Assembly (NCBI GenBank): GCA_003278855.1
Contig: QCCU01000006.1
Location: forward strand, 1,578 to 65,577
Direction of reading: 5' to 3'
Source: Prochlorococcus sp. AG-347-M23
GTDB taxonomy: Bacteria; Cyanobacteriota; Cyanobacteriia; PCC-6307; Cyanobiaceae
Length of the DNA stretch: 64,000 bases
Positions within the stretch are counted from its first letter, which is position 1, and each line of letters begins with the position of its first letter. Under the pieces are notes generated by a model. That model saw nothing but the letters and a program-made list of their open reading frames with translations, had not been told where the DNA came from and did not search any database. Positions 36,598 through 40,415 of this stretch are shown piece by piece. The translations under genes and the position numbers were made by a program.

Positions 36598-37836
36598 TTG
36601 AGCCAGTTAGATTCCAGTTGGTCGTTTGTTGATGACAGTAAGGTAACACCCAAGGGGTTTCTTTTTGCTGGGATATCTGCTGGTTTAAAAGCTTCTAATA
36701 AAAAAGATTTAGCACTAATACTCGCTCCAGAAGGAAGTATTTTTAGTGGGATGTTTACCCAATCAATAGTTCGAGCTTCTTGTGTGGATATTTGTGAGGA
36801 AAGGATTAAAACAACTTCAGGTTTTGTAAGAGCAATACTAATTAATTCTGGTCAAGCAAATGCATGTACAGGAAATCTTGGTATTCAACATTTTCAAATT
36901 GCTACAGGAAAGATTGCGGAACTTTTAGGAATAAAAGAAGAAGAAGTTTTAATGTGCTCAACTGGTGTAATTGGTGTTCCAATACAAATAAATGATTTAG
37001 TAAAAAATTTACCGAATTTAGTTAGTGATTTAAAGGGTAATAATTTTGAAAATGCAGCAGAAGCAATTTTAACTACTGACTTGACTTTGAAAAAAGTGTC
37101 AATAGAGACGGTTATTCAAGGTAGAAAAATAAAAATAGCAGGATTTGCAAAAGGTTCAGGAATGATTTACCCCAACATGGCTACAATGCTTGCTTTTCTA
37201 ACCTGTGATGCGGGTATTCAAAAAGAAGAATGGGACAAAATGATTACTATTGCGGTTCAAAAATCTTTTAATGCAATATCAGTAGATGGAGAGACAAGCA
37301 CAAATGATTCTTTTGTTGGAATAAATGCAGGAGAAAAAATTGAAAAAAGGTTTTTTCCAATTATCCAACAAGGGATTGATATTGTATGTCAGAACTTGGC
37401 AAAAAATATTGCAAGGGATGGAGAGGGAGCAAATTGTTTATTAGAAGTTTTGGTTCAAGGAGCAAAAAATACAGATGATGCAATTATGCTCGCGAAATCT
37501 ATTTGTAATTCTGCCTTGGTAAAAACTGCGATACATGGTTGTGATCCAAATTGGGGACGAATCATTTCTGCTGCAGGTAATTCTGGAGTTGAATTTAATT
37601 TAGATGACTTTGACTTGTATATAGGAAACGCTCACATTTTGGAAAAAGGCCAGTTAAATAAATATGATCCACAAAAAGTCACAGACTATATTAAGTCCAG
37701 AATGAAAGGTAGATATTTGGTAGATGATATTGTAAAAATTATGATTAATTTAAATTCTGGCGAATCGAAAGGCACAGCTTGGGGGTGCGATCTTTCTAAA
37801 AAATATGTTGAAATCAATAGCGAATATACTACTTAA
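36598..37836 (+). CDS. argJ: Bifunctional ornithine acetyltransferase/N-acetylglutamate synthase
   Basis: KGSGMIYPNMATMLAFL autocleavage site, DGETSTND, DGEGA, NSEYTT. Confidence 0.97.
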   Translation: MSQLDSSWSFVDDSKVTPKGFLFAGISAGLKASNKKDLALILAPEGSIFSGMFTQSIVRASCVDICEERIKTTSGFVRAILINSGQANACTGNLGIQHFQIATGKIAELLGIKEEEVLMCSTGVIGVPIQINDLVKNLPNLVSDLKGNNFENAAEAILTTDLTLKKVSIETVIQGRKIKIAGFAKGSGMIYPNMATMLAFLTCDAGIQKEEWDKMITIAVQKSFNAISVDGETSTNDSFVGINAGEKIEKRFFPIIQQGIDIVCQNLAKNIARDGEGANCLLEVLVQGAKNTDDAIMLAKSICNSALVKTAIHGCDPNWGRIISAAGNSGVEFNLDDFDLYIGNAHILEKGQLNKYDPQKVTDYIKSRMKGRYLVDDIVKIMINLNSGESKGTAWGCDLSKKYVEINSEYTT

Positions 37837-38071
37837 GTTTTAGTAAATCTAATGGTAGATATTCATTAATATATAGAAACAGTATTGTTAAAGTTCCAAT
37901 TACAGAGCCTATAAAACCTCCAAAAAAATTAACTAATAATCCAGATTGTCTAATTATTGCTTCTTCTTTTTTTTCTTCTTCAAAATTAGGAGAATCAACT
38001 ACTTTTAAGCGCTTATTGGTTGTTGGTTGTTTAAGTTGTTGGTGTCGGATGAGGGCTTCGAAATCAGGCAT
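37829..38071 (-). CDS. Small protein with C-terminal TM helix, putative partner of the adjacent ParA-like ATPase
   Basis: 80 aa from ATG 38071 (ORF track extends to 38095); basic/polar N-terminus, acidic linker, hydrophobic segment GLLVNFFGGFIGSVIGTLTILFLYI. Confidence 0.7.
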   Translation of the reverse strand: MPDFEALIRHQQLKQPTTNKRLKVVDSPNFEEEKKEEAIIRQSGLLVNFFGGFIGSVIGTLTILFLYINEYLPLDLLKLK

Positions 38072-38676
38072 GGAATTTGTGAGGCAATTGAACAATAAGC
38101 AGACCAGCCCGTCATTCGACGAGGATCTGATCTGCCTAAATCGTCTACAGCTTCAAAAACAGCATTGCCAGAGGCTTCTGCTTTATCAAATGCTGAGAGT
38201 AAGGGTATAAATGTATCAAAAACATATAAACCAAAATTTTCTAGAGCTGCTTTGGCTTGTTGCGCTGCTTTTTGCTGTCTAAAATCAACTTTTACTATTA
38301 CTACAGCATGGTTAACTTTTAAGTTTCTTAATAAATTAGCTAGTTCAACAGTTAATTCTACTGATCTTGCTTTTGCAGTTGTAGGTAAGATAACTAAATC
38401 TGAACCATACGCTAAGTGTTTAAGTTCTTCTTGATCACTGCTCGCCTGGCCATCAGTTATTACAATTTCTGATGATCTTGATGCTTTAGCAGCTGAATTG
38501 ACGGGGAAAACTGGAAATGGAAGATTGCCTCTTGATGCGTATGCTAAAGCAGATCTGTTCTTGTCGGCATCGACTATGCAAACTTTTTTACCTTCGGAAT
38601 GCCAAACACTCGCAAGGTGAATACTTGTACAGGTCTTGGCCACGCCCCCTTTTTGTCCGCAAACGGTAATGAACAA
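38005..38676 (-). CDS. Short ParA-family ATPase (no N-terminal HTH)
   Basis: Deviant Walker A GQKGGVAKT, VDADKNRSA, ITDGQA, DLVILPT; TTG start. Confidence 0.92.
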   Translation of the reverse strand: MFITVCGQKGGVAKTCTSIHLASVWHSEGKKVCIVDADKNRSALAYASRGNLPFPVFPVNSAAKASRSSEIVITDGQASSDQEELKHLAYGSDLVILPTTAKARSVELTVELANLLRNLKVNHAVVIVKVDFRQQKAAQQAKAALENFGLYVFDTFIPLLSAFDKAEASGNAVFEAVDDLGRSDPRRMTGWSAYCSIASQIPCLISKPSSDTNNLNNQQPISA

Positions 38677-38826
38677 TTTTTTATTTTTATTTCTCTTACT
38701 TTGGAGAATAATTTCTTAATGTCAAGAGAAATTGATTTTTAATGCTTTAAAACTTATTTTTTGAAATATTTTAAAGAAGTTAATTTTTTTAGATAACCTT
38801 ATAAAGTTCCTTATTTAAATTGGCTA

Positions 38827-39789
38827 GTGAAGAAAAGAATTGGATTAGGTACGTGGTCTTGGGGGAATAAGCTTTTCTGGAATTACCAATCTACAAATGA
38901 CGATGATTTACGTGAGACATATGATGAAGCGTTACGAAGAGGTTTCGATCTAATTGATACTGCAGATTCTTATGGTACTGGGAATCTTCAGGGCAGAAGT
39001 GAATTGTTGATAGGAAAATTTCTACTAAATACTCCTTCAGCAAAGAAAAAAAGAATTCAAGTAGCAACTAAACTTGCACCTTATCCCTGGAGAATAGGTG
39101 ACAGAGGCTTCAATAAACCTTTTTTGAAAAGTTTAGAGAGACTTAATAACAAATTAGATATAGTGCAATTACATTGGTCAACTGCAAAATACAATCCTTG
39201 GCAGGAATTAGGGCTGTTGAATAATCTTTGCGATTTAAAAGATGAAGGCTTTGATTTTCAAATAGGCTTATCAAATATAGGCCCTAAAAGATTGATGAAA
39301 TTAATTAATTTCTTAGCAAAAAGAGATCAGCAGCTAAAGAGTGTTCAAATACAGTTTTCTTTGCTTGCTCCCGATTTAGGAAAACAATATCAGGTAAAAA
39401 AAATTTGCGACGAAAATAATATTGATTTCTTTGCTTATAGTCCTTTGTCCTTTGGAATACTTTGTATTGATCCAGATAATGAAGAAAATAAAGAAAAAAG
39501 TTTCATTCGTAATTCCTTATTTGAAAACTATAAAAAACCAACATATGAATTGCGGAGGTGTCTAAAAAGAATTGCGCATCAAAGATCAGTTTCCCAAGCG
39601 CAAGTAGCAATTAATTGGTGTTGTTATCAAGGAACTATTCCACTAGTTGGAATGCGAAAAAAATCTCAAGTTATAGATGTATCTAATGTATTTAATTGGA
39701 ATTTAAAAAAAAATGAATTTAAAGTACTTCAGGAAGTTTCAAAAAAATGTTTAAAAAAAATGCCGAAAAATCCTTTTTCGAGTAATTAA
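38827..39789 (+). CDS. Aldo/keto reductase
   Basis: GLGTWSWG, DTADSYG, ATK, QLHW, AYSPL. Confidence 0.92.
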   Translation: MKKRIGLGTWSWGNKLFWNYQSTNDDDLRETYDEALRRGFDLIDTADSYGTGNLQGRSELLIGKFLLNTPSAKKKRIQVATKLAPYPWRIGDRGFNKPFLKSLERLNNKLDIVQLHWSTAKYNPWQELGLLNNLCDLKDEGFDFQIGLSNIGPKRLMKLINFLAKRDQQLKSVQIQFSLLAPDLGKQYQVKKICDENNIDFFAYSPLSFGILCIDPDNEENKEKSFIRNSLFENYKKPTYELRRCLKRIAHQRSVSQAQVAINWCCYQGTIPLVGMRKKSQVIDVSNVFNWNLKKNEFKVLQEVSKKCLKKMPKNPFSSN

Positions 39790-39934: not shown

Positions 39935-40088
39935 TTTGCAAGATTGGATTTCTTAATAAGATAAATTAATTTAAAACTTATCTTCTCAGTATTTATACTT
40001 ATAAAATTAAAAAAATTCTTTTTAATACAAGTAATTGCAGCAATATTTACATACTCATAAATTATCTACTACAACTTCTTAGTTATTT

Positions 40089-40114
40089 AAAAAAGTGGAG
40101 TCCTTCCAGACTCC
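40089..40114 (-). terminator. Intrinsic terminator after the tmRNA coding piece
   Basis: Minus strand GGAGTC-TGGAAG-GACTCC hairpin, then AC and T6. Confidence 0.75.
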
Positions 40115-40345
40115 TAGTATCATTTGGTTGATAAGGCTGATATGACCCCATCTCCTTTAGGATCAAGCAGCAACTGGTGCTGTTTGACGGGAGAAACTAA
40201 CGATTTTGTTAGCATTTGTGTTTTTGCTCTAACCGAGCCGGCTTCAGTCATCTTCCTTATGCCCCGTCGAAACCATTACAACCCCAAATAGTGGAGTTGA
40301 GCGGAATCGAACCGCTGTCCGAAACATCGGTTGAGATCACCTAGT
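40096..40345 (-). ncRNA. ssrA: Circularly permuted (two-piece) tmRNA
   Basis: Acceptor piece with T-arm AGCGG-TTCGATT-CCGCT and CAACTCC-A (ends 40292) lies upstream of the 5' end GGGGTTGTAATGGTTTCGAC (starts 40285); G3-U70 pair; tag frame present; outer boundaries approximate. Confidence 0.95.
40163..40213 (-). other. tmRNA tag reading frame ANKIVSFSRQTAPVAA-stop
   Basis: GCT AAC AAA ATC GTT AGT TTC TCC CGT CAA ACA GCA CCA GTT GCT GCT TGA. Confidence 0.92.
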
Positions 40346-40415
40346 CCAATTGGACATTTATATTCTGACAGGCAAAATGGTTATTGAATAGTTTTTTTAC
40401 TAAGTTTTATCGTAT

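Follow-up and report, generated by a model that had tools for sequence, protein, structure and literature searches.

A constrained gene pair of alpha-cyanobacteria encoding a type Ib ParA-like ATPase and a small putative partner with a predicted membrane anchor

The stretch analysed here, 64,000 nucleotides of Prochlorococcus sp. AG-347-M23 (the window), carries on its minus strand two overlapping genes, one for a ParA-like ATPase of 223 aa (38005..38676) and one for a small protein of 80 aa (37829..38071). The pair is a genuine and constrained module that is previously undescribed in the literature searched, where we found no description of it; the original prediction, made from the DNA letters alone, had already proposed it as new. 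We consider it probable that the two genes form a chromosomal ParA/partner positioning module of alpha-cyanobacteria, derived from type Ib partition systems, in which the adaptor has a C-terminal membrane anchor. The GC content of the window is low (about 31%) and its close relatives carry the name Prochlorococcus.

The ATPase and the small protein

The ATPase gene starts with TTG (38674-38676) and was recognized from the list of open reading frames (ORFs), Pfam and NCBIfam models, an AlphaFold2 (AF2) model and Foldseek. The Pfam model CbiA matched it at 3.6e-13, together with AAA_31 and VirC1. The best NCBIfam model was ParA_partition with 85.5 bits, under its cut-off of 180 bits, and the MinD models gave merely about 21-27 bits in the Walker A region alone. 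All motifs quoted by the original prediction are present in the translation (DADKNRSA, RGNLPF, ITDGQA...ELKHLAYGSDLVILPT, AFDKA, DPRRMTGWSAY and RHQQLKQPTTNKRLK). The deviant Walker A motif K9-G-G-V-A-K14-T15 with the signature lysine, read from the sequence and from an alignment of 19 relatives, lies at 38632..38652 on the minus strand. In this alignment K9, G10, G11, K14 and T15 are invariant, as are D36 and D38 of Walker A'; the ITDGQ box is present and the Walker B region is intact and invariant.

Among solved structures, full-length sequence matches were obtained only with 3CWQ (an uncharacterised Synechocystis ParA, profile score 1e-39), ParF (4DZZ, 1e-9) and the TP228 ParA of the ParA-ParB complex (5U1G). 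No McdA entry was found among the 60 best sequence hits to solved structures, and Soj-like proteins matched by sequence over the Walker A region only. The AF2 model (mean confidence, pLDDT, 87.8; pTM 0.84) was matched by Foldseek at probability 1.0 to 3CWQ, ParF, Soj and MinD. The top match was 3CWQ (TM-score 0.82/0.88), followed by ParF (0.77/0.83) and ParF-ParG entries and then by Soj and MinD, with a Cyanothece McdA at rank 21 (0.68/0.61). Because the full-length sequence matches and the top structural matches are 3CWQ, ParF and the TP228 ParA, the ATPase is, by sequence and predicted fold, a short type Ib ParA of the ParF/3CWQ kind.

The ATPase does not have the membrane-targeting amphipathic helix of the MinD type. 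Its C-terminus, residues 207-223 (38008..38058, minus strand), has pLDDT below 50 and is a predicted disordered polar tail ending with a conserved x-Ala. All 17 ParAs of the alpha-cyanobacterial clade in the alignment, with or without a partner, end with a small or hydrophobic residue followed by Ala (PISA, PLSA, PLVA, NLAA, RIAA, RQVA; 38005-38058 in the window). This terminal Ala, which caps a tail predicted to be disordered, has a likeness to ssrA-like C-terminal degrons, and by this analogy the amount of ParA may be controlled by proteolysis.

The small gene encodes 80 aa when counted from the conserved ATG at 38071, on the basis of the ORF list, the orthologues and the AF2 model; the open frame itself extends over 37829..38095 (minus strand), which gives 88 aa if counted from a TTG. 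The overlap with the ATPase gene is 67 nt (38005..38071, minus strand), exactly as the original prediction had given it, and the locus comparison described below shows that it is dual-coding, with the ParA tail in one frame and residues 1-22 of the small protein in another.

An alignment of 12 orthologues and the AF2 model agree on a three-part anatomy: an N-terminal helix, a variable linker and a C-terminal hydrophobic helix. Residues 1-12 (codons at 38036..38071, minus strand; MPDFEALIRHQQ) follow the pattern MPDFEAL[IV][RK]xQQ, in which M1-L7, Q11 and Q12 are invariant and R9 is nearly so. From its conservation, the AF2 model and the analogy with known ParA partners, we propose this segment as a putative ParA-binding and ATPase-stimulating helix. 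AF2 predicts helices at residues 4-13 and 31-68, and the linker is variable in length and sequence and modelled with low confidence. The predicted transmembrane (TM) helix covers residues 45-69 approximately (37865..37939, minus strand) with a GxxxGSxxGT glycine-zipper pattern; the hydrophobic helix was modelled with pLDDT 79-93, and in it F49, G55 and S56 are nearly invariant and T60 is invariant. A tail of 9-21 residues with a loosely conserved aromatic motif comes after it.

The highest Kyte-Doolittle score over 19 residues is 1.94 for the small protein of the window, and 52 orthologues have a median of 1.89 and a minimum of 1.44; the highest value anywhere in the ParA is 1.14. Sequence and model of the small protein suit a single-pass membrane protein of a tail-anchored-like kind, its N-terminus facing the cytoplasm, a topology that we infer. 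The original prediction had pointed to a C-terminal TM helix, with which both the hydropathy of the orthologues and the AF2 helix agree, and to a basic stretch at the N-terminus similar to that of ParA partners, which in sequence appears as a short predicted helix with conserved hydrophobic and basic residues.

The orthologues have about 80 aa (67-89 aa), with 78-aa variants at three loci (L015, L017, L019). No Pfam or NCBIfam family, and no ribbon-helix-helix (RHH) model among them, matched the small protein. There are 1730 close relatives in public data, and the NCBI annotation of one of them is "hypothetical protein". Searching 1.84 billion representative proteins with the profile of the small protein gave only 42 clusters; those inspected contained Prochlorococcus-like and Cyanobium-like variants, assembly chimeras and one unrelated repeat protein, and no relatives from beyond the picocyanobacteria.

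Coupling of the two genes and selection on them

In a sample of the family of 121 genomes from 64 genera, ParA-like matches were found in 23 genomes of 11 genera, and where a genome is complete, a missing match means true absence of the ATPase. The profile of the small protein had a convincing match in 14 of the 121 genomes, exactly those in which identity to the ParA of the window is 66% or more, so that the co-occurrence on which the original prediction depended is found. In the ParA clades at 52-63% identity, the small ORF was found nowhere in the genomes. An ORF beginning with MPDFEAL is present at each of the 35 named loci whose ParA reaches this identity; two of the ORFs are incomplete, one in a single-amplified genome (L065, truncated, 51 aa) and one at a contig edge. 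The carriers among the named loci are Prochlorococcus of both high-light (HL) and low-light (LL) groups, freshwater Cyanobium, Vulcanococcus and Synechococcus strains and metagenome-assembled genomes, for example Synechococcus sp. 8F6 and CS-1331. The pair is present in each of the 12 sampled genomes of HL Prochlorococcus.

A comparison of 53 loci covered GC contents of 30-69%. The small ORF is open, starts with ATG and keeps the same register in all of them, which is far more conservation of register than chance would give. Fifty loci have an overlap of 67 nt and three have one of 61 nt, and in high-GC genomes a GGAG sits 5 nt 5' of the ATG of the partner. The ParA start codon is at the same position in all 53 loci and is never ATG: genomes of low GC use TTG and those of high GC use GTG. 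Because ParA always starts with a non-ATG codon and the partner always with ATG, the sequences suggest that translation of ParA is deliberately low relative to the partner.

The ratio of non-synonymous to synonymous substitution rates (dN/dS) of ParA is 0.04 in the HL set and 0.11 in the high-GC set. The ATPase is thus intact and strongly constrained, and not the degenerate relic for which the original prediction had allowed. The non-overlapping part of the partner has dN/dS 0.22-0.24 in the high-GC set, with control frames at 0.86 and 3.1, and it is under purifying selection there. In the HL set, dN/dS is 0.45 for the TM helix plus tail and 0.90 for the linker, with control frames at 0.52 and 1.73. 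Within the overlap, the ParA-frame motif CLISK is kept only where the small ORF exists, and the same stretch varies in the ParA clades that have no partner. Because this conservation vanishes together with the small ORF, and the ParA there is mostly predicted disordered tail, we take the constraint on the overlap to come from the N-terminus of the small protein.

The pair stays intact across three differing neighbourhoods: an aldo/keto reductase gene and argJ in HL genomes, a short-chain dehydrogenase/reductase gene and an ABC-type gene in NATL-like LL genomes, and rpmB upstream with a convergent htpG in Cyanobium. In the window, argJ lies on the left and is convergent with the pair, and the aldo/keto reductase gene lies on the right and is divergent. 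The intergenic region between parA and the latter (38677..38826, 150 nt) is the presumed promoter region. It has no centromere-like repeats, and a scan of its minus strand for consensus promoters and terminators was empty, which is uninformative in such an AT-rich genome. A tmRNA gene is located at 40072-40381 (minus strand), 1.4 kb from the pair and on the side opposite argJ.

The original prediction had also noted the absence of a ParB gene and of a recognisable parS nearby, and the wider scans are in accord with it. No iteron or parS-like repeat array was found around the pair (37700-39000), where only short AT-rich two-copy chance repeats occur, and ParB_N (PF02195) had no match at E 0.1 in the genome of the window, which is 93% complete. 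The sole other ParA/MinD-type gene of this genome, on another contig (C5), is probably minD, judged from a truncated fragment that groups with beta-cyanobacterial MinD. For the remaining CbiA-family matches of the genome, the open frames are of the length expected of common housekeeping P-loop proteins.

A small variable region adjoins the downstream end of the pair, because argJ is shifted away from the small ORF by inserted DNA in several HL genomes (L010, L011, L064, L068, L069, L072; compare 37829-37836 of the window). The insert at L010 includes a gene for a 172-aa PEBP/YbhB-like protein. At the LL loci L014, L016 and L018, further conserved small ORFs occur 40-550 nt downstream of the pair. 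One encodes 62-63 aa with a TM segment (...LWLFVFFLNLFGLVGFWYLK...AFRGG) and the other 62 aa (MLKALFWGMLGAS..YYGD[AS]IGLAPIALG...NP.RIACLNY[DE]S); L018 has the latter alone.

Origin of the pair and alternative readings

Beyond the family, the best relatives of the ATPase are about 30-41% identical and are of two kinds. The first kind is chromosomal ParAs of beta-cyanobacteria with 195-198 aa and no conserved neighbour. These proteins (MIIAITALKGGVGKTTT...EILP), found at L084-L101, L103, L104, L109, L115, L117, L119 and L122, including Synechocystis-like and Microcystis-like genomes (tentative labels), are distinct both from type-2 McdA and from the plasmid-type ParAs with RHH partners. The second kind is ParAs of 196-199 aa from the group that holds 3CWQ, followed by genes for proteins of 71-146 aa that often overlap by 4 or 42 nt. 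Their partners start with MS[RK]F[DK]xL[LI] and end with an RHH-like domain; among three partners of related ParAs scanned with the Pfam RHH models two matched, both weakly and below the cut-off. Two alpha-cyanobacterial ParAs (L030 and L035, 35% identity) also have RHH-like partners, which start with MDFEKLIAQ and MKLDKLT.

In a quick maximum-likelihood tree with long branches, the chromosomal ParAs of alpha-cyanobacteria form one clade (SH-aLRT support 99), sister (97) to L030 and L035, and apart from the beta-cyanobacterial orphan group, the beta-cyanobacterial RHH group and type-2 McdA. The link with L030 and L035 is supported by a 6-residue insertion before the DP motif, which is common to them and the alpha clade and is not in other groups. 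One Cyanobium-like genome (G085) holds both kinds of module, the chromosomal ParA with a TM partner (L020, MPDFEALVRRQQ...) and, on another contig, the 35%-identical ParA with an RHH-like partner (L035, MKLDKLTNQLEGR...). The N-terminal peptides of these two partners would have to discriminate between two ATPases.

Two clades of ParA paralogues without a partner, G2 (215 aa) and G3 (231 aa, with a C-terminal extension PIGWDxxPLE), nest within the alpha clade. They come from marine Synechococcus-like genomes (tentative label) of the same family with sizes of 2.2-2.7 Mb and GC 0.50-0.60, at one or two copies per genome (L023-L028, L032-L034, L082, L083, L029/L037, L036/L038). No remnant of the small ORF is recognisable in G2, where the region has diverged. 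In two of three genomes sampled from one partner-less genus, a ParA copy is broken by a frameshift or a TGA (L029/L037, L036/L038). In lineages that have lost the small ORF the ATPase persists only in diverged form, and together with the broken copies this fits coupling of the two genes and is not proof of it.

The module is like the type Ib systems (ParF-ParG of TP228, and the cyanobacterial 3CWQ-type ParAs with RHH partners) in three respects: the ParA is about 200 aa long without an N-terminal DNA-binding domain, the partner gene is directly downstream and overlaps the 3' end of parA, and the partner opens with a short peptide of the F-[DE]-x-L-[IL] type. It differs in that the partner has a predicted TM helix in place of the RHH domain, that there are no centromere iterons, and that the module is chromosomal and present across Prochlorococcus and Cyanobium lineages; according to the literature, the genomes bearing the pair are free of plasmids. 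The simplest reading of these sequence comparisons is that the pair originated from a type Ib ParA/adaptor module, with a membrane anchor standing where related systems have the RHH domain.

Several observations weigh against a positioning module of this kind. Selection on the partner leaves only a weak signal in the HL set, and therefore the argument in HL genomes rests on preservation of the ORF. Overlap with the constrained "SA-stop" end of ParA may account in part for the invariance of R21 and L22 in the partner. The pair is dispensable, because many genomes of the family have none of it. The neighbourhoods in HL and LL Prochlorococcus and in Cyanobium share no cargo-like gene, which leaves no hint of the cargo. 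When the profile of the small protein was aligned with that of the RHH partners by hhalign, just residues 1-10 aligned, to the N-termini of the RHH partners, at a non-significant E of 0.078, so that the likeness is a resemblance of pattern only. Finally, where long branches meet the deep order of the tree is not firm. In the phylogeny that the original prediction had proposed, the alpha clade does stand apart from type-2 McdA, but the approximately unbiased (AU) test does not reject a grouping of the two (p 0.18).

The weakness of the N-terminal likeness would be natural if the small ORF encoded a genuine small membrane protein that is merely co-transcribed and translationally coupled with parA and is no partner of the ATPase, which would then work by itself or together with a factor encoded elsewhere, for instance to organise the nucleoid. 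The related beta-cyanobacterial chromosomal ParAs of 195-198 aa, which do without any conserved neighbour, and the partner-less clades of marine Synechococcus-like genomes agree with such a view. We nevertheless regard it as unlikely, since the register of the overlap and the invariant 12-residue N-terminus are kept over GC contents of 30-69% and three neighbourhoods, and the small ORF is never found apart from this ParA clade. The most constrained segment of the small protein is exactly the one used by known partners, and the broken ParAs occur in a genus that lacks the small ORF.

Another explanation is that the pair is the missing McdAB-like carboxysome positioner of alpha-cyanobacteria, and that the small protein is a divergent McdB contacting carboxysomes by an aromatic C-terminal tail. 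McdAB was reported absent from alpha-cyanobacteria, many of which have no ParA at all (PMC7182216; PMC12918739), so that the function is vacant, and the patchy distribution of our pair fits this published absence of ParA. As in McdAB of beta-cyanobacteria (type 2) and alpha-McdAB of proteobacteria, a ParA with the signature lysine is followed by a small and fast-evolving partner whose conserved N-terminal helix is, by analogy, the likely ATPase contact, and the host has carboxysomes and no described McdAB. The partner orthologues of Cyanobium end with GW[LIF]xF, 24 of 52 orthologues have a Trp in the last 8 residues, and the AU test leaves a deep grouping with type-2 McdA unrejected.

The hallmarks of type-2 McdA are a double tryptophan followed by an insertion of about 7 aa, and McdB proteins are disordered and of low hydrophobicity (PMC7182216). 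The type-2 system is further marked by a central coiled coil and an invariant C-terminal Trp in McdB and by genes that often lie near those for carboxysomes. Three type-2 McdA candidates that we took from beta-cyanobacterial genomes (L148-L150) have the double tryptophan, in the form S[AS][ST]WWVxR, with insertions; two of the three are followed by coiled-coil proteins, candidate type-2 McdBs, which start with M.[RK]K.LSDLL and end with a Trp motif. The ParA of the window reads SALAYASRG at this place, with A-Y at the double-tryptophan positions and no insertion. Its partner has a strongly hydrophobic helix, in contrast with McdB, and is neither disordered nor coiled-coil, and the C-terminal Trp, which no Prochlorococcus orthologue has, is not invariant. 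There is also no linkage to carboxysome genes: the bacterial microcompartment shell genes are on another contig of the same genome, and 420-450 kb separate the pair from the cso operon in three of four complete relatives, a range that leaves aside the fourth, where the distance runs across the origin. We therefore rejected membership in type-2 McdAB. The kinship with type-2 McdA that the original prediction had drawn is not supported, given the absent double tryptophan and insertion and the structural matches, in which 3CWQ and ParF are nearest and McdA structures rank 21st or lower and are outside the top 60 sequence hits. A McdAB-like role in carboxysome positioning appears improbable on these grounds.

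The pair could also be the fixed remnant of a partition module from an integrated plasmid or mobile element, with no present cellular function. This would agree with the plasmid-type ParAs as nearest relatives, with the HL locus bordering a variable spot 1.4 kb from a tmRNA gene, and with the patchy distribution within the family. It is quite improbable, though, given ParA dN/dS of 0.04-0.11, the invariance of all catalytic residues, and the presence of the pair in every HL genome sampled as well as in LL and Cyanobium lineages; centromere repeats and a DNA-binding adaptor are gone, yet both genes are intact. Hardly credible is a programmed frameshift within the 67-nt overlap that joins the frames into a membrane-anchored ParA fusion: it would agree with a long, conserved overlap and with the -1/+2 frame that the small ORF takes with respect to ParA, but the small ORF has its own ATG in all 53 loci, preceded by GGAG in high-GC genomes, no X XXY YYZ heptamer was seen by eye in the overlap of the window sequence, and the ParA frame encodes a predicted disordered tail there.

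Proposed role of the module

If the pair is a ParA/adaptor positioning module, it could work as follows. ParA-ATP dimers would coat the nucleoid, as expected from the protein family. The adaptor would sit in the thylakoid or plasma membrane with its N-terminus in the cytoplasm, as its single hydrophobic helix near the C-terminus suggests. The invariant N-terminal helix (F4, L7, I8, R9) would then dock on the ParA dimer and cause ATP hydrolysis and release, by analogy with the N-termini of ParG, ParB and McdB. The outcome would be a ParA depletion zone or a ratchet between the nucleoid and a membrane-embedded cargo, and not one between the nucleoid and DNA or carboxysomes. In cells without ParB, such a module would position either a membrane complex along the length of the nucleoid or the single nucleoid itself with respect to the membrane.

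Diverse ParA partners contact the ATPase by an N-terminal helix of about 20 residues, which is necessary and sufficient and has one key basic residue and several hydrophobic ones; in McdB of H. neapolitanus the contact residues are K7, L4, L8 and I12 (PMC12139897). The small protein offers F4, L7, I8 and R9 in its predicted helix, at the same place as these published contacts.

A tie between the cycle of a ParA/MinD ATPase and a location at the membrane is known from MinD-MinE and from the TM landmark proteins HubP of Vibrio and TipN of Caulobacter. MinD binds the membrane itself and MinE is soluble, whereas the ATPase here lacks a membrane-targeting helix and the predicted anchor is on the putative stimulating partner. 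HubP and TipN are large polar landmarks that bind ParA-like ATPases, whereas the partner here is encoded in the operon, has about 80 aa and opens with an N-terminal peptide of type Ib. The chromosomal ParABS system (Soj-Spo0J) also has a ParA-family ATPase on the chromosome; in distinction from it, this genome has no ParB_N match or parS-like repeats and the ATPase is of the short type Ib.

A more specific form of this mechanism is possible, and we offer it tentatively, as a rather unlikely extension. In it, the membrane-anchored adaptor would read the ParA gradient on the single chromosome and, as a nucleoid-to-membrane ratchet, would centre and segregate the nucleoid, and with it the carboxysomes that crowd round it, within the thylakoid shell of the ParB-less picocyanobacteria. 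If true, the "centromere-binding protein" of this partition system would attach to a membrane and not to DNA.

No photosynthetic cell on Earth is more abundant than Prochlorococcus. Many picocyanobacteria, including every HL Prochlorococcus sampled, keep one constrained ParA tied to a dedicated small partner. The pair would represent a type Ib adaptor re-targeted by a swap of its cargo domain, with the N-terminal peptide retained. If the interaction holds, the adaptors of ParA, which so far bind DNA, organelles or clusters, would gain a tail-anchored membrane class, and there would be a testable handle on the spatial organisation of picocyanobacteria.

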